A stretch of DNA of 64,000 nt from Eledone cirrhosa. Lineage: Eukaryota. The first letter of the stretch is position 1. Each line of letters starts with the position of its first letter. Location: positions 9,238,001 through 9,302,000 of the forward strand of contig OZ024761.1 in NCBI GenBank assembly GCA_964016885.1, in the 5' to 3' direction. A model generated the notes under the pieces. It saw only the letters and a list, made by a program, of their open reading frames with translations, made no database searches and was not told the DNA's origin. A program made the position numbers and the translations under genes. This document shows, piece after piece, positions 10,703 to 57,960 of this stretch.

Positions 10703-13319
10703 ATAACTTTGAATAACTTTGAAATGTTTTGGCCAGTATTGGCCCAGGCCATGTCTAACTTAATAGCACCACCTGGCGAAGTCTTTCAATTCAGGATTTG
10801 GGCACCATGGCCCATTCGAGAAGAGAATTACTGTTTGCGGAGACATATCCGGGTGTGGGTGGTTTGTCCGGGATTACTTGGAGGAATTTGTCCAAAGACT
10901 TCTTGAATCTTGTGTGGTCAGTTTCTGTTTTGACGTGTCCTGGTGTGATGTTGAAGAGAGCAGGGCCGATTGAGGTGAAATAATTGTGCCGTATTGTTGT
11001 TATGAGTTGCGATTTAGATTTTTGAATGGGACGGATAGCACGGGGCCCAAGCCTTGGGTGTATCTTGAAGGCGATGCCAACATCATTTGGGCAGTGATGA
11101 TGGAACATTTTCCACATCATGCAGATAATATAACGCTCACGGCGACGTTGGAGTGAGTAAAGTTTCAGGTTTTCCAATCGACCCCAGTAGTCAAGGTCTG
11201 ACATGCCATCTATCTTTTTCGTGATTGCCCTTTGAGGAGCTTCAAGTTTCATGATACTTTGTTTCGTGTGGGGAGACCACAGTGGACAACAGTATTCAAG
11301 GTGTGGTCGGGCGAAAGTAGAGAAGAGAAGGATAATGGTGCGGGAATCTCTCGACTGGAAGGTTCTGAGGATCCAGGAACACATTCTGCGGGCCATGTCA
11401 ACTTTGCTGCTTATATGCGTGGTCCAGCTTATGTTGCTGTCCACGGTTACTCCCAAGTCTCTGATGTTGTTAGATGCCACGAGAGTTTCCCCGGAGGGAA
11501 GGGAGTACGGGAGTTTCAGAGCATCCTCTTTTCCAAAGTGGATCAGTTCGAATTTGTCTTCGTTCAGTAACATGTTGTTCTTTTCTGCCCATTGGGTAAC
11601 AGCCAGTAGGTCTGACTGAAGGCTTATCCGGTCATCCACGCCATTGATGACCTTTTGGAGCTTGGAATCATCAGCGAAAATTTTAATGTTGCTGTGTTTG
11701 ATGATGTCAGTGATGTCATTAATATAGATGATGAAGAGAAGTGGGCCCAACACAGTGCCTTGTGGGACTCCACTACTGACTTTGGCTGGGCTTGATTTGA
11801 CTCCCTCAACTACAACATGTTGGGTTCTGTTTGACAGGAAGCTCTTGATCCACTGCAGCAGCTTTCCAGTGACACCAATATTGGACAGCTTTCTCAGTAG
11901 AATGTTATGATCAACCCTGTCAAAGGCCTTGCTGAAATCAAGGTAGATAACATCAGTGTTGGAACCCTCTCCCAAGGCTCTCAAAATGTCATCAAAGTGA
12001 TGCAGTAGTTGCGTCAGGCAATCCCTTCCATTACGGAATCCATGCTGGTTGGAGTTCAGCATATTGTTACTCTCAAGGAAGTGGGTCATTCGCGATCTCA
12101 CCACTCGCTCAAATACCTTAATGATATGAGAGGTGAGTGAGATTGGACGGTAATTCACGGCAAGGGATTTGTTTCCCTTTTTGAAAACTGGGACAACAGA
12201 CTGGGATAGAAGGTTTTCTGGCACATATCCAGCATCCAGTGAGTTCCGCCACAGATTGGCAAGAGGAGAAGCAAGTTGGTGTTGACACGCCTTCAAGACA
12301 CAAGCAGGGAACCTATCGGGACCTACTGCTGAATTATGTTTGATTTCCTTTATTGCCGCCAAGACATCAGGGGCGCCAAACGTTATGTCCGATAAGGTGT
12401 AATGGGGAGTAACATCGCCGATACAGCCCAGATCGGCCATATCAGGATTGCTGAAAACAGAGCAGTATTGTTTCTGCAGTATCTCACCCATGGTTTTAGC
12501 ATTGTCTTGAAGAGTGCCATTTTCATCAATTAGAGGGCCAACAGTAGAGCCAGTGATTTTGTGTTTTTTTGCAAATGAAAAGAACACTTTGGGATTGAGT
12601 TTGATCTTCTCAATGGCCCAGGCCTCTTCAGCTCTTCTCTGATTGTTGATGAGGGACATTATGTTGTTTTGGAGGTTATGTTTTTTAATCTCTAGTGATG
12701 AAATGGCAGTCAAGTTGATGTGTTGCTGCTGACAGTATTTCAGCTTGTTGATTTTTTTGTTCGTTCTCTTAATTTTTCTGATGAGTGTTTTTCTATTTCT
12801 AGGGATTCTGCTCTTAGATTTGTTTATAGTTCTTAATGGGGTGTGTTTAGCACATATGTTTGTAACAGTGTCCACAAAAGTCTGCCAGGACTTTTTGATG
12901 TTAGTGGGTGTATGAGTGTGCGTGAAGGACCAGTCGACATGTGCAAGATCATGACTGATCGCTTCCCAGTTTGCATTGTGGAAATCCATAGCGTCAAACG
13001 GATGGACAGGAGAAATGACATTGGGTTTGTATATTGGACGGTGGAATCTCAGATCACAGAGAACCATGTCATGATCAGAGAGTAGAGTTTTCTCCACTGC
13101 AATATTGTGGATATTGTCAGTGTGATTGCTGAAAATTAAGTCTAGGACGTTTTTGTGGCACCTCGTTGGTTCGAGCACTAGTTGGGATAGGAAGAAATCA
13201 TCCATGAAGTCAAGAAGCGATTCCACAGCTTCCCTGTCAGAGGTTGAGGCAGAAGAACCTGGTGGCAGGGTGTTTGTGGACCAGTCAACTCCGGGGAGGT
13301 TGAAGTCCCCCATCATTAT
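10703..13319 (-). mobile_element. CR1-group LINE, 5'-truncated, inserted in (TA)n
   Basis: ORF2 below, ~90-bp 3' UTR, 3' tail of tandem ttcaaagtta units, microsatellite on both sides. Confidence 0.85.
10791..13316 (-). CDS. LINE ORF2: C-terminal part of APE endonuclease plus reverse transcriptase (841 aa uninterrupted)
   Basis: GDFNLP, LDL, SDH (APE). [59 protein letters not shown] (CR1-type RT). The first 149 aa of the listed ORF are microsatellite. Confidence 0.92.
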
Positions 13320-21273: not shown

Positions 21274-21329
<56 letters not shown>

Positions 21330-22049
21330 GTACATAAATATAAATATGTATATAAATGTATATAAATATTTATCTCTCTCAATATATATATATACGATAT
21401 TAAATAAATGGAAACTATATTTATAAAACCATATTTATTTCATTATATATATTTCAGGGATATCATATTAACAATATGCTATGCCTTCCTCAGACAAAAT
21501 ACAATATAAACAGTTTTATAGATAAATAGATTTGACATACCGTACAACATCGACTTGTATTTGAAAAGTTGAATTGGCAGTGAAAAAATTGTAAACAGAA
21601 AGAAAGAAAGAGAGAAAAAAAGGAAAGAAAGACAGAAAACGAAGAAAAAGAAGAAAAAGAAGAAATGCATGGAACAAAATAGAGAGATGGAAAGATAGAT
21701 AAAGAGAAGAACTTCATGTAAAGAAACAGAGAGAGATATATATATAGAGAGGAAATAGATAGAGATAGATATATATATAGAAAAATAGGTAGTTGGACAT
21801 CCGTTGAGTAAACGTATCAATGATACATTTATTTATTTATTTATTTATTTAGCTCTAGTATTAATGTAAGGGAGATATATGTGGTTAGGAGAGAAACCAG
21901 CTGTTATATAGAGAGAAAAATGAAAAGTAACCAGACATAGGCGAGGCATAAAAACCCTATGTTTTAATGTAGATGTATTAGTATGTTTAAAAACCAGGCA
22001 CTATATTGTAAATATCAGTATTCATGAATGAATACTGATATTTACAATA

Positions 22050-24164
22050 AGGAGAATCAGGTGGCGAGCATTCCACTTTGATAAATCTAATATAAATGAA
22101 AATGTCTCGGACTTAAACAAAGTTTTCAAATCTAAAAGAAATCCACCCCCTAACAAACTTTTATCTGACTTTGAAAACGATATAATTTCTATCATACAAG
22201 GGGTCAAATTCAAGAGAAACTTCAAAGGCCAGGAATATCTGAAAGGCATTAAGGATAATATTGAGAGCTTAGAGAAAACTGAGAAGATCTTGGTGAAATC
22301 TGACAAGACCAACAACCTCTATGGAGTGCAGAAAGACATGTATAATGGCCTCATACTGAAGGAACTGAGGAAAAAGTACAAGGTAGCAGATAAGGCCGAG
22401 CTTGAGAAAATGAATGTCGAAGCATCTTGTATAATGCACGAGTTGGAAATTGAGAACAGAACACAACCTTTCGTGCCCAGGAAACCGAAGATCAATATGA
22501 AAGATCACAAGAGGAATTTTGAAAATGACTTGCCAGTTAGATTGATCGCACCATCAAAATCGGACCTGGGCAAATTAAGCAAAAACATTCTTGACAGGGT
22601 GATACAGCAAATTAAGAACTTGGATTGTTTATCTAACCTGAGCTTGTGGAAGGGAACTGGAGAGGTTGTTGAGTGGTTTAAGCAAATTAAATATAACAAT
22701 AATAATAAGTTTATTCAACTTGATATTGCTAACTATTATTCTTCTATTACCCCTAATCTACTAAATAAGGCACTAAATTACGCATTCAAACATACAGACC
22801 TAACTAGCAATGAAATGCATATTATATTATCGGCTAGGAAAACATTGATAGAATTTAATGACCAACTATGGACCAGAGCAGATAGAGATAGCAATTTTGA
22901 CATTACTATGGGATCATCCGACTCAGCTCAGGTAACTGACCTTGTGGGCTTATTTTTAATCAATTCGCTACATAGGAAAATACCTGGTACTACCGGAGGT
23001 TTATATAGAGATGACATGCTTTTACTTATTGATAATAATAACTCTGAACTAAATAGAAAATGTAAACAAATTACACAATTTTTTAATTACTTTAATCTTA
23101 AAATAGAAATTGAGAACAACCATAGAATAGTCAATTTCCTAGATATAACATTAAATCTCAACACATGTCTTCACTATCCTTTTCACAAGTTGAATGAAAA
23201 CTTAAACTATGTCAGCTTTAACTCTAACCACCCCAGATCTGTCAAAAACACTATAGTAAACTCTGTTCAAAAACGTATCTCTAGAATCTCGTCTAATAGA
23301 AAGATTTTCGACGAAAAAGCCCAGTACTACAATGAAGCGTTAGCTAGAGCAGGATATACTGATAAGATTATGTACATAGATAATGATAGACAAACTAAAC
23401 AAAATAACAACTATTTTAATTACGGCAACAACCTTAACAACTATAATAGAAAGCATTACAATAATTCCAAAGGCCAAAAAAGAAATAGAACTAGGAACAT
23501 AATTTGGTTTGCCCCCCCTTTCTCACTAAACATTAAAACCCACATCGCTAAACTATTTTTTAAAGCTCTTGATAATCGCTTCCCTAGAACACATAGGTAT
23601 CACTCAATTTTCAATAGACATACTATAAAATTAACCTACTCATCCACCAAAAATTTAGCACAAAATATTAATAGAATAAATAATAGGAACTTAAAACCTA
23701 GTGATAATAGCATAAATAATATACAAGTTAACAAATGTAACTGTAGAGATAGATCTAAATGTCCGTTAAATAACAACTGCTTAGTTAAAAATATAGTATA
23801 CAATTGTAATGTTAAAACTGACTCTAATTCTTTTAACTACGTCGGTTCCACATCGACGGAATTTAAACTTCGCTATAATAACCACAAGAATTCTTTCACA
23901 GATCCAAGCAAAAAATCTTCAACGGCACTATCAGGCGTACTCTGGCAACTTAAGCTAGATAACGTTAGATATTCGACGGCTTGGAATATAGTCTCAAGAG
24001 GGATTCCTTTTAATTCATCCTCTGAGACATGTGACCTCTGCGCAGAGGAGATATTCTTTATACTAAAATCTAAAAATTCCCTTAATCTACGGACAAATTT
24101 ATTCAGTTGCTGCAAACATAGATTAAACTCAACTTTTAAATATAAATTTAAATTTAAAATGTAG
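22050..24164 (+). CDS. PLE reverse transcriptase plus GIY-YIG endonuclease, 5'-truncated, no internal stops
   Basis: Frame open from the junction (RRIRWRAF). KSDKT, KDHK..PVRLI, LDIANYYSSI, ITMGS, GLYRDD, FLDITL, SNHP, CNCR..CPL..C, IVY..YVGST..FKLRYNNHK, CDLCAEE. YRDD motif suggests a Naiad-like clade (inference). Confidence 0.92.
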   Translation, partial: RRIRWRAFHFDKSNINENVSDLNKVFKSKRNPPPNKLLSDFENDIISIIQGVKFKRNFKGQEYLKGIKDNIESLEKTEKILVKSDKTNNLYGVQKDMYNGLILKELRKKYKVADKAELEKMNVEASCIMHELEIENRTQPFVPRKPKINMKDHKRNFENDLPVRLIAPSKSDLGKLSKNILDRVIQQIKNLDCLSNLSLWKGTGEVVEWFKQIKYNNNNKFIQLDIANYYSSITPNLLNKALNYAFKHTDLTSNEMHIILSARKTLIEFNDQLWTRADRDSNFDITMGSSDSAQVTDLVGLFLINSLHRKIPGTTGGLYRDDMLLLIDNNNSELNRKCKQITQFFNYFNLKIEIENNHRIVNFLDITLNLNTCLHYPFHKLNENLNYVSFNSNHPRSVKNTIVNSVQKRISRISSNRKIFDEKAQYYNEALARAGYTDKIMYIDNDRQTKQNNNYFNYGNNLNNYNRKHYNNSKGQKRNRTRNIIWFAPPFSLNIKTHIAKLFFKALDNRFPRTHRYHSIFNRHTIKLTYSSTKNLAQNINRINNRNLKPSDNSINNIQVNKCNCRDRSKCPLNNNCLVKNIVYNCNVKTDSNSFNYVGSTSTEFKLRYNNHKNSFTDPSKKSSTALSGVLWQLKLDNVRYSTAWNIVSRGIPFNSSSETCDLCAEEIFFILKSKNSLNLRTNLFSCCKHRLNSTFKYKFKFKM

Positions 24165-25468
24165 TATATTTAGTTTGATTTATAATTATTTGGGAAACTA
24201 GCCGATAAATCTTTCGATTTCTTCTTTTTATTCTTCTTTTTCTTTTTAGTTTTATTTAAACATTCTTCATGAAAAATTAAACTACCCTAAAAGTTGATGC
24301 TCCAAATATTTCGAATAAACGTTACACTAGATAAACTTCTATATTAAATATAAGAACACATGTAGACCAAATGGGCATCCTAAACTTTTTGAAATGATTT
24401 TTGCTAGATGCGATTTGATAAATAATTTTTAGCTTTATCTGTTTTCGACTCTGATGCTTATAATGAACTTGGCAATATATTGTCAATTAATTTTGAAGGG
24501 TTGATCTTTGTGGTTTATTTTTATTATTGTAGTATTTTCTAATATTTTTATTTTTAATATGTAATATTTTTTCGTAATATTTTTTAGTTTTCTATTTTAT
24601 TATTATTTATTATTATTATTATTGTTATTTTTTGGTTTTTGTTTCTGATATATTTTTTATTAATATATTGAAATCTGCTCTCTATTTCTGCTTGATAGAT
24701 AATCTTGTAGAGTAAAGACAAGAATAGTAGTAATATAGACTCTCTATATATATGTATATATATACACATATATGTATACTTAAATTTTTATAGCACAATG
24801 AGAATGTTTTCCGTGTGAACTTAGGGTTTGCAGAGTTGATCATGTAAATTCACATCGATGTTTGTAGTTATCATATAAACATATGAATTTTTTAAAACTA
24901 AACATAAGATCATTACTTTTCACACATTATGGATACGTGTCTCATTCATGAATACTGATATTTACAATATAGTGCCTGGTTTTTATACATACTAATACTT
25001 CTACATTAAAACATAGGGTTTTTATGCCTCGCCTATGTCTGGTTATTTTTCATTTTTCTCTCTATATAACAGCTGGTTTCTCTCCTAACCACATATATCT
25101 CCCTTACATTAATACTAGAGCTAAATAAATAAATAAATAAATAAATGTATCATTGATACGTTTACTCAACGGATGTCCAACTACCTATTTTTCTATATAT
25201 ATATCTATCTCTATCTATTTCCTCTCTCTATATATATCTCTCTCTGTTTCTTTACATGAAGTTCTTCTTGTATCTATCTTCTCTTTATCTATCTTTCCAT
25301 CTCTCTATTTTGTTCCATGCATTTCTTCTTTTTCTTCTTTTTCTTCGTTTTCTGTCTTTCTTTCCTTTTTTTTCTCTCTTTCTTTCTTTCTGTTTACAAT
25401 TTTTTCACTGCCAATTCAACTTTTCAAATACAAGTCGATGTTGTACGGTATGTCAAATCTATTTATCT

Positions 25469-25566
25469 ATAAAACTGTTTATATTGTATTTTGTCTGAGG
25501 AAGGCATAGCATATTGTTAATATGATATCCCTGAAATATATATAATGAAATAAATATGGTTTTATA
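25469..25566 (+). ncRNA. Hammerhead ribozyme in PLE pseudo-LTR (mirror copy near 21422-21519, -)
   Basis: CTGAGGA aggcatagcatattgttaatatgatatccct GAAA tatata TA, closed by ataaaactgt/atggttttat. Sister copies have CTGATGA. Confidence 0.6.
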
Positions 25567-25737
25567 AATATAGTTTCCATTTATTTAATATCGTAAATAT
25601 ACTCCAAATACTTGTCGAGTGCTTTTATATCAGTTATAAATATTTACTAGTTGTAACCCAACAATTTAAATATAACTTTCCATATATATATATATATATA
25701 TATTATTATTATGTAATAAACAACATAAGGCAATTAT

Positions 25738-25795
25738 TCCATTTACCAGTGGTTTCTTAAAAGCAAAAGGTTTTGCTTTCAATCCTCAGAATGAA
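25738..25795 (-). ncRNA. Type I hammerhead ribozyme (another pLTR family; terminal hairpin also at 57546-57622)
   Basis: ttcatt CTGAGGA ttgaaagcaaaa-cc-ttttgcttttaa GAAA ccactgg TA aatgga. Confidence 0.75.
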
Positions 25796-26293
25796 AAATC
25801 CTGGTTTGTTTATTGAATATGGATTCTAAAAACAAAAATGCAATCTATATGAAAGTGAGGCTGGAAAAGGGAGAAGGAAAGGAAAAATAAAATAAAACTA
25901 CACATGCAAACACACACAAAAAAACACAAAAGCATACTTACACACACATACATATATACATATATATAAATGTACGCATACACATATACATATATGTTTC
26001 CTTGAAAACTCGTATGACTCTAAAACCCGGTCCGCCTGTGTGGTTACATACAGACTAGCTGACACTCACTGTAAAGTGTCTAGTGAAAAGCTGAGTACAT
26101 GTACATATGTATACATGTGTGTATTTATATGCATACTAATACTTCCGTATACATATGTAGATGTACACTTTAACTTAATTGTTTAAGCGTCAGTCATACA
26201 AAAGTGAGTTAGAAGCGAAACGAAATTTAATTTCGTTTCGTTATTTGTTTTTATCGTTTCCGCTGAACCGGTGCGTACAATGACTCACGTTCT

Positions 26294-26301
26294 ATGCAAA
26301 T
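26294..26301 (+). promoter_or_regulatory. Octamer ATGCAAAT (POU/Oct site, snRNA-type distal element candidate)
   Basis: tatgcaaattag is identical in both retrozyme-like families, upstream of the ribozyme. Confidence 0.5.
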
Positions 26302-26386
26302 TAGTCTACCCACTACTAATTTTCATAGAAAAAGCATATAACGATATGTGCTTTTACAATTCTCCAGAGAAGCCGGAAGATGGGTA

Positions 26387-26431
26387 AATATTGCTGATGA
26401 GATGTAATAACATCGAAACTAGTCCAATATT
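26387..26431 (+). ncRNA. Minimal type I hammerhead ribozyme
   Basis: aatattg CTGATGA gatgt-aata-acatc GAAA ctag TC caatatt. Perfect stems I and II, palindromic ACTAGT stem III, GUC cleavage triplet. Confidence 0.92.
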
Positions 26432-26731
26432 CCTGTCTGGCCCTCTGGAGAATAGAGGAAATGTGTTTCCTTGAAAACTCGTATGACTCTAAAACCCGGT
26501 CCGCCTGTGTGGTTACATACAGACTAGCTGACACTCACTGTAAAGTGTCTAGTGAAAAGCTGAGTACATGTACATATGTATACATGTGTGTATTTATATG
26601 CATACTAATACTTCCGTATACATATGTAGATGTACACTTTAACTTAATTATTTATATATATTTATTTATATATATATATATATTTATTTATATATATATA
26701 TATTTTTATTTATATATATATATATTTATTT

Positions 26732-26867: not shown

Positions 26868-27211
26868 TATATATATAAGTATATGCAAAAGTTCTATTTA
26901 AATTGTTGGGATACAACAAGCAAATATTTTTATAACTGATATAAAGCACTCGACAAGTATTTGGAGTAAATATACGATATTAACAAATGGAAACTATATT
27001 TATAAAACCATATCTATTTTATTATACATATTTCAAGGATACCATGTTAAATTATGGTATGCTTTCATCAGACAAAATACAATATATACCAGTTTTATAA
27101 ATAAATTTTGACATACCCTTTCAAAATGCAATCGTTACTTATGGAAGACATCAGGGATATTGGATTTGTTTATCTTAGTAAGTCATTGTGTTACGGAGAA
27201 GGAAAAAAAAA

Positions 27212-54000: not shown

Positions 54001-54406
54001 TTAATTAGGTTTATAATATTTAAATGTTTTTTTTAGTTTATGATTACACGATATAATTAATTCCTGTCGTTTATTTAATAGGATATCCTTAGATTTCATT
54101 ATTTCAAATAGTTCTTGGGAACATAATCTACATTCATTTCTATTATTTTGATAAGGGGTGGCTCTTTTGAGCACACTCCAGGTCAAATCATATTCTATAT
54201 TCTTATTTTTATAACTATTGATTTTTTCTGCTAGAGATGTTGTATTAGCCAGTGCGGCATTTTTAAAACTATGCTTGTGGGTATTAAACCTTGTCTTAAA
54301 ATTGTTAGAGGTAGCTCCTATATATGAGCAAATAGAATCTTTAGTTTTAACATTACATTTATAGACTATGTTGTTAACAAGACAATTCCCTTTTAATGGG
54401 CAGTTT
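54001..54406 (-). pseudogene. PLE GIY-YIG endonuclease fragment
   Basis: NCPLKGNCLVNNIVYKC..YIGATSNNFKTRFNTHK..CRLCSQE..LLNKR..CNH. Confidence 0.88.
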
Positions 54407-57014: not shown

Positions 57015-57960
57015 ACTTTTTTTGTTTAATATAAGGAACTGTTTCATTGTTTTATTCATTATTTGTTTAATATTTTATCTTGACTCTGTATACCGTTTAT
57101 CTTTCACCGAAAGTGATTTTTCATTACATCTCTTCTTTCCATGATATCCGGAATACATTGAGTTCTTCATACGGATTTGACACTACCGTAAACTCTTGGT
57201 AGATTTATCTACATATATATATATATATATATATATAACAGACACACACACACACGCACATATATATATATAACACACACACACACTCATATATACATAT
57301 ATATATATTATATCAGATGTGAGAAAAACCACAAACCCTCCATCTCAACTCTACTTTTGAAAAGCAGAAGAACTGTGAAAACCGGTAAAGGAACCAAATA
57401 AATATATATTTATATAAGACTCCAGTTGCATTTTTGATTTCATCTGTTTTCCTTATATTTATATATATATATATATATATAAATGAAGTAATTCCGTCGG
57501 AAAAGTCCAGGAAAAAAGAGTGCTCTATGTAGGTAACAGAGCTTAATAGTTATGTAATAAACAACATAAGGCAATTATTCCATTACAATGGAATAATTGC
57601 CTTATGTTGTTTATTACATAACTATATATATATATATACCAAGTAAGTATGTTTTGAAACAGTGAGCGAGTTTGAAATTAGAAAATATATAGCTTTCACC
57701 GTATTTTTAACTAAAGGAATTTTAGCTTGATAACTCGCTAAGAATGTAGTTTCTAATTTGAATGGAAAGAGACGGGTGATGTGTTGGTATAATGGTAGCA
57801 CAGTGGTCGCGATAACCACAGATGTGGGTTCGACTCCCATGTACGTCAATACTCATCTTTTTCCATTTATCTGAGGGTTCTAAACCCCGTTATCAAGCTA
57901 AAATTCCTTTAGTTAAAAATACGGTGAAAGCTATATATTTTCTAATATATATATACTTAT

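Follow-up and report, generated by a model that had tools for sequence, protein, structure and literature searches.

Newt satellite 2, the subject of work by Coats, Zhang and Epstein in 1994, reportedly contains an internal octamer together with a PSE. A source on hammerhead satellites cites repeats with internal promoters both from newts, where the promoter is of the snRNA type, and from schistosomes, where it is a Pol III promoter (PMC2220036), so that the newt precedent invoked in a first-pass annotation of the locus studied here does exist, as cited there. A second group of related elements, the non-LTR retrozymes, consists of head-to-tail units of 150-450 bp, according to Cervera and de la Pena (2020; PMC7229834). 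Metazoan retrozymes seem to lack promoters, and read-through transcription has been proposed for them, as stated in a review from 2020 (PMC7761336). Two diverged families that lie side by side provide a natural experiment on the source of the abundant transcription of metazoan retrozymes.

The window, i.e., the whole 64-kb stretch of DNA that was analysed, contains two hammerhead tandem repeats, A and B (Table 1), which share 58% identity in a MAFFT alignment. Both possess a complete hammerhead core with helices I-III, of which helix III is short and helix I extended, and repeat A has a single ribozyme and a single octamer box. Between the two families, 5 of the 12 pairs in hammerhead stems I and II have changed on both sides. 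The Rfam model HH9 scores the ribozymes at 31.8 bits (A) and 18.5 bits (B), both under its cut-off of 52. The repeat units are non-coding, with GC contents of 0.37 and 0.36, and the reading frames that overlap them are low-complexity stop-to-stop frames of at most 166 codons. Sequence rich in TA is found at the end of both repeats. Judged by their fit to the class delineated in the accessible sections of PMC7229834, A and B would be non-LTR retrozymes, for which self-cleavage and the formation of circles are predicted. The 5' end of array B begins inside the ribozyme, and an identical 5.7-copy array with such a start is compatible with the copying of a circle. The five complete ribozymes of B would allow four monomers to be released, whereas A by itself would yield none. 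At the 5' junction of array B (about 33453-33470, minus strand), the 3' half of the ribozyme is present as a short duplication, and the 3' end of the array falls inside the TTTATCGTTT block, at the junction with (TA)n. Both flanks of B bear a (TA)n-AAT stretch, which could be a target-site duplication.

Table 1. Positions of the repeats, their sequence and structure elements and the neighbouring reading frame in the 64-kb window.
Feature	Position	Strand	Remarks
Repeat A, hammerhead tandem repeat (putative non-LTR retrozyme)	25995-26654	+	Unit of 469 bp, 1.4 copies; AT/TA-rich surroundings
Repeat B	30797-33452	-	466-bp unit, 5.7 identical copies with 5 complete hammerhead cores; repeat ends in (TA)n
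Type I hammerhead, A	26378-26438	+	Extended stem I; core from 26394; predicted cleavage after 26424 (GUC)
Type I hammerhead, B (lowest copy)	31090-31153	-	Core from 31137; predicted cleavage at 31107 (GUA)
GTGAGTTA, 5' arm of long-range stem, A	26204-26211	+	Pairs with ACTCAC box; pair probability 0.97 (0.91-1.0 across conditions)
Hairpin H1, A	26214-26242	+	Inside ACTCAC long-range stem; also in B, where it differs by one compensatory change
TTTATCGTTT, 10-nt block common to A and B	26250-26259; 31267-31258	+; -	Mostly unpaired in B
TGACTCAC, ACTCAC box, A	26281-26288	+	3' arm of stem with 26204-26211
ACTCAC stem, B (lowest copy)	31229-31304	-	GAGTGAG (31304-31298) and CTCACTC (31235-31229) around H1; pair probability 0.98
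TATGCAAATTAG, A	26293-26304	+	Octamer box and hairpin 5' arm; C26297 unpaired (C·U mismatch)
TATGCAAATTAG, B	31215-31226, 31681-31692, 32147-32158, 32613-32624, 33079-33090	-	Spacing 466 bp
CTAATTTTCATA, hairpin 3' arm, A	26316-26327	+	One-mismatch copy of octamer box on minus strand
Octamer hairpin, B (lowest copy)	31191-31226	-	Arms 31226-31215 and 31201-31191; extra 4-bp inner stem; recurs every 466 bp
Small hairpin H4, A	26330-26355	+	
Small hairpin H4, B (lowest copy)	31173-31188	-	Shorter than in A; 2 compensatory changes in 6 pairs
Penelope-like reverse transcriptase/endonuclease frame	22032-24164	+	Outside the repeat, about 2 kb upstream of A; open, 710 codons, the first Met being codon 103

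The first-pass annotation had highlighted a 12-mer, the octamer box TATGCAAATTAG, as identical in both families and as recurring every 466 bp in B. This description proved accurate: the box occurs six times in the window, once in repeat A and five times in repeat B, at each of the sites at which it had been placed, and among the 19 exact blocks of at least 8 nt that the two units have in common, none is longer. The independent sequences number two (A and B) rather than six, and the four full units of repeat B that were compared represent a single distinct sequence. The bare octamer ATGCAAAT is no rarity and is found 12 times in the window, with 5.85 occurrences expected by chance, and the six octamers outside the two repeats do not have the flanks of the octamer box. 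These flanks had also been pointed out previously and are indeed present in both families, with ACTCAC starting 11 bp before the octamer and TAATTTTCATA following the octamer box after a spacer of 12 nt in A and 13 nt in B, and with a small hairpin after it; ACTCAC alone is frequent in this microsatellite-rich window. However, TAATTTTCATA does not constitute a separate box but corresponds, save for one position, to the reverse complement of the octamer box.

The octamer box and TAATTTTCATA form an 11-bp hairpin that in both families contains one C·U mismatch, located at the C of the octamer. When the window was searched with the octamer box at a tolerance of one mismatch, seven matches were obtained, the seventh being the 3' arm of the hairpin in A, on the opposite strand. 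The mean pair probability of the hairpin reaches 0.94-0.99 at 15, 25 and 37 °C, whether the RNA is modelled as a circle, a linear molecule or a dimer. Its z score is -5.3 in repeat A and -2.0 in repeat B, and RNAalifold, applied to a sequence-only alignment, recovered all 11 pairs of the stem. In each family, the stem is lengthened by bases that the other does not share, namely two to three outer pairs and one inner pair in A and a 4-bp inner stem in B. Comparison of the two stems reveals 10 identical pairs and a single change, a 3'-arm substitution by which a G-C pair becomes G·U. None of the 11 pairs is altered on both sides, as one would expect of a stem whose 5' arm is held constant while the 3' arm adapts to it. 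The C·U mismatch is common to A and B and could simply be unchanged. According to these models, the octamer box thus makes up one side of an RNA hairpin that both families conserve.

The same applies to its surroundings. In both families, ACTCAC pairs with a GTGAG sequence located ~70-80 nt upstream, with a probability of 0.91-1.0. Folded separately, A and B adopt the same abstract branched shape, except for a 2-bp helix at the junction of B, with a tree distance of 207, whereas none of 280 randomly diverged controls (70% or 85% identity) kept the shape of its parent or came as close. Among the 62 pairs outside the octamer stem, counted with helix registers placed by hand, 16 show two-sided changes that still pair and 2 break. 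Sequence-only alignments did not contain clearly more compensatory pairs than expected, with 14 versus 11.2 in one alignment and 7-11 versus 4.3-9.9 over six settings, one of which recovered the GTGAG register. Mutated controls of the B domain reach energies down to -71.1, so that its own value of -62.6 falls among theirs. The shared fold is thus supported by shape agreement more than by formal covariation. Overall, the paired fraction amounts to 0.70 and 0.66 of the respective unit, and the folding z scores of the monomers are -10.1 and -7.0 (60 shuffles each), values that are inflated by an AT-rich palindromic hairpin. A long, microsatellite-like hairpin of this kind sits at the same place in both units (26095-26166, plus strand; 31452-31338, minus strand). 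At loose Rfam thresholds, it draws many below-threshold microRNA models by virtue of its composition, and nothing meaningful matched the octamer-box region at these thresholds. A covariance model built from A and B retrieved no third family, its eight matches comprising the six training copies and two weak self-matches, and scans of prokaryotic genomes with the hairpin pattern and with the ribozyme pattern returned no matches in either case. As modelled, the boxes are primarily arms of a conserved RNA structure. The shared fold provides a structural map of what is probably a cephalopod retrozyme and marks sequences that the mobiliser or the host may read. TTTATCGTTT is predicted to be mostly unpaired in B and is hence a candidate for a signal read as sequence.

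An inverted repeat can also be extruded in DNA, and the second arm of the hairpin represents a near-octamer on the other strand. It is thus conceivable that the boxes serve as promoter elements solely at the DNA level and fold incidentally, or that DNA or cDNA forms a hairpin or cruciform that is read at integration. We regard this explanation as very improbable, given that folding in both units has a more favourable energy for the ribozyme strand than for the opposite one (-155.0 versus -137.7 and -149.9 versus -113.3), that the G·U change permits pairing solely in RNA of the ribozyme strand and that the shape of the whole unit is conserved.

The interpretation of the octamer as a POU/Oct site, proposed in the first-pass annotation, is a fair one insofar as both families share a perfect match. 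With 40 8-mers common to units A and B, the chance that one of them equals the octamer is 0.0027, and among 3000 shuffled units the octamer appeared in 2.1% and 5.4%. Its conservation in excess of that of other helices, however, is not significant, and the comparison comprises two sequences: two-sided changes affect 0 of 11 pairs in the octamer stem and 16 of 62 in the other helices (Fisher p 0.052), the corresponding test for pair identity gives a p value of 0.13, and the four neighbouring helices, which keep 22 of 27 pairs identical, do not differ significantly from the octamer stem (Fisher p 0.43). The ACTCAC box, which lies at a fixed distance from the octamer, reads TGACTCA in A (26281-26287, plus strand) and TTACTCA in B (31238-31232, minus strand), both of which we take to be AP-1-like. 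The octamer context in B corresponds to 13 nt of a consensus-octamer probe presented in the available part of PMC1800861, an anecdotal match to a single probe. None of 10 other hammerhead-like cores in the window has an octamer within 300 bp. In a rough weighing of the evidence, the chances that the octamer is a real POU site appear about even, with a slight lean to yes.

These observations can be reconciled in two main ways. In the first, the element would be dual-coded, acting as a hairpin in the RNA and as a POU site in the DNA, where it may work from within the unit as an enhancer or upstream element for Pol II. We place this interpretation, which we favour, just short of an even chance, based on sequence and modelling. 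In the second, which is nearly as likely, the match to the octamer is incidental and the hairpin is retained because the retrozyme RNA needs it for its structure or handling, with the C·U mismatch perhaps forming a contact for a protein or the reverse transcriptase and transcription arising from read-through or another element. The pairing of all three boxes within a fold common to both families is consistent with such a role at the RNA level, as are the almost equal conservation of the neighbouring stems and the fact that about two thirds of each unit are paired. The read-through transcription proposed in the review mentioned above (PMC7761336) points in the same direction, and its description of metazoan retrozymes as seemingly promoterless counts against a dual code. 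On the other hand, an incidental match would require a ~1-in-370 coincidence involving precisely the motif tied to the newt precedent, and the octamer stem is devoid of two-sided changes, while these affect 5 of 12 pairs in hammerhead stems I and II.

The first-pass annotation had gone further and proposed a promoter of the snRNA type. According to the available part of PMC9652321, the PSE of snRNA promoters is essential and located 40-70 bp upstream of the start, whereas the DSE, with its octamer at -250 to -170, is missing from some genes and normally lies outside the transcript. A flatworm study (PMC5460494) assigns an octamer by alignment only. Using an insect core pattern for the PSE, which may not be that of the host, we obtained two one-mismatch matches in A and none in B. 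A pattern derived from human U6 contacts, to which the same limitation applies, gave one match in A, at a site unmatched in B, and two weaker ones in B. Consequently, neither pattern identified a PSE-like match common to A and B. TAATTTTCATA was also considered as an insect-like PSEA and rejected, as it deviates from the core at more than one position and lies at different distances from the ribozyme (62 versus 49 bp). The flanking boxes, ACTCAC and TAATTTTCATA, are explained as paired arms; they may also act in the DNA, but a promoter is not needed to account for them. With no match to the insect or human-derived patterns in common between A and B, the snRNA-type proposal is unsupported.

A strict snRNA-type internal promoter, in which the octamer would act as the distal element and a PSE bound by SNAPc would set the start, represents a sub-case of the dual code and, in our view, an unlikely one. 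The perfect octamer in both families and the newt precedent cited in PMC2220036 are in line with it, and PSEs diverge quickly between lineages (PMC1761439, available part), so that a mollusc PSE could be missed. Moreover, A and B share a block, CGTATG, ~170-185 bp downstream of the octamer, in the next unit, at a distance that would fit the distal-proximal spacing given in the available part of PMC9652321. However, apart from the lack of a shared match to the two PSE patterns, the CGTATG block itself belongs to a stem, as an arm in which a compensatory change has occurred, and the distance from the octamer to the cleavage site differs by 12 bp between the families (130 bp in A versus 118 bp in B). 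In addition, our literature search, conducted at the title and abstract level, returned no paper on octamers in mollusc snRNA promoters. Rfam detected no snRNA gene in the 64-kb window. Pol III is unlikely to transcribe the units, because the ribozyme strand contains runs of at least four T (three in A and five in B) and neither of the A- and B-box patterns gave a match in them. The further claim that each unit drives transcription through the units downstream could hold for array B but not for A, with its single ribozyme.

For dual coding as such, there is a familiar parallel in the A and B boxes of tRNA genes, which are both promoter and RNA structure. Under the favoured dual code, the octamer in the genomic DNA would be bound by a ubiquitous POU factor and act as an internal enhancer or upstream element for Pol II, so that any inserted copy could be transcribed. 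POU binding would hold the letters of the octamer fixed, and the partner arm would follow through pairing. In silico, transcription and hammerhead cleavage would give rise to a 466-469-nt monomer with a branched fold, in which the octamer box pairs with TAATTTTCATA, ACTCAC closes the neighbouring branch and the small hairpin comes next. Multimers would thus cleave themselves into monomers, which, following the retrozyme model outlined in the accessible sections of PMC7229834, would be circularised by a host ligase and then reverse-transcribed and inserted into (TA)n by a Penelope-like element. Copying of the circle by the Penelope-like enzyme could generate identical head-to-tail arrays such as B. 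At somewhat less than an even chance, retrozymes of invertebrates may be equipped with a Pol II activator of their own in the form of a POU site hidden as an RNA hairpin, possibly an inverted pair of a perfect and a variant octamer beside an AP-1-like site, a dual code that would be independent of salamander satellite 2 or anciently shared with it. If true, such an activator would explain the constitutive expression of retrozymes without read-through. Because the box is a stem arm, its DNA and RNA roles are cleanly separable.

A candidate for the mobiliser of the retrozymes lies nearby, in the form of a Penelope-like frame. This frame contains the motifs RWR, DKT, CNCRDRSKC, CDLC and CKH (codons 10, 91, 569, 667 and 694, respectively). 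As described in the available part of PMC8557442, the (TA)n-targeting Penelope-like elements of the Hydra clade feature RWK-like, DKT, CxCX5C, CxxC and CxH motifs and a C-terminal endonuclease, a match by which the frame would be assigned to this clade. Pfam identified no family in it. Among its 20 homologues, the only one listed with an organism stems from Octopus bimaculoides, a faint pointer to a host that is probably a cephalopod. The frame is flanked by inverted terminal repeats (about 21284-22031 and 24942-25703), with hammerhead-like cores at 21493 (minus strand) and 25495 (plus strand), and further members of this Penelope-type terminal-repeat hammerhead family, in diverged form, are found at 27071 (minus), 27492 (plus), 29536 (plus) and 47760 (minus). 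Hammerhead-like cores of different sequence families are located at 25789 (minus), about 200 bp from repeat A, and at 260 (minus), 7563 (minus) and 7675 (plus). Fragments resembling the endonuclease end of the Penelope-like frame are present at 35616-36026 and about 54001-54400, both on the minus strand. The window also contains a long LINE-type reverse-transcriptase frame (10794-13280, minus strand; Pfam RVT_1, E 2.7e-31), which upstream passes into a microsatellite, and a tRNA-like match (57778-57848, plus strand; Rfam, 38.2 bits), possibly a tRNA-derived repeat, which is the sole match in the whole window at curated Rfam thresholds.

Compared with the known promoter-bearing repeats, A and B resemble newt satellite 2, as reported, in being hammerhead tandem repeats with an internal octamer, a short helix III and a palindromic loop region. 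They differ from it in that a snRNA-type Pol II promoter has been reported for the newt repeat, whereas in A and B no PSE was identified and the octamer is the arm of a hairpin. With the vertebrate snRNA promoter, composed of DSE and PSE in the available part of PMC9652321, they share the perfect octamer but not the essential PSE, as judged with the two borrowed patterns. The SM-alpha element of Schistosoma is likewise a hammerhead repeat with a reported internal promoter (PMC2220036 and PMC6155905, accessible sections); its promoter is of the Pol III type, whereas A and B contain T runs and no match to an A or B box. Our literature search, which left most subscription papers outside its reach, returned no cephalopod retrozyme and no octamer hairpin in a retrozyme. 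The closest likeness is that to the metazoan non-LTR retrozymes, as characterised in the accessible sections of PMC7229834: A and B are tandem repeats that lack coding capacity and have a single type I hammerhead in each unit, a GC content below 50% (about 36-37%) and a highly self-paired monomer, and they coexist with Penelope-like elements, although their units of 466-469 bp marginally exceed the range of 150-450 bp. Unlike the retrozymes described there, the two families have, for all their divergence, a single fold in common and an octamer hairpin that does not vary.
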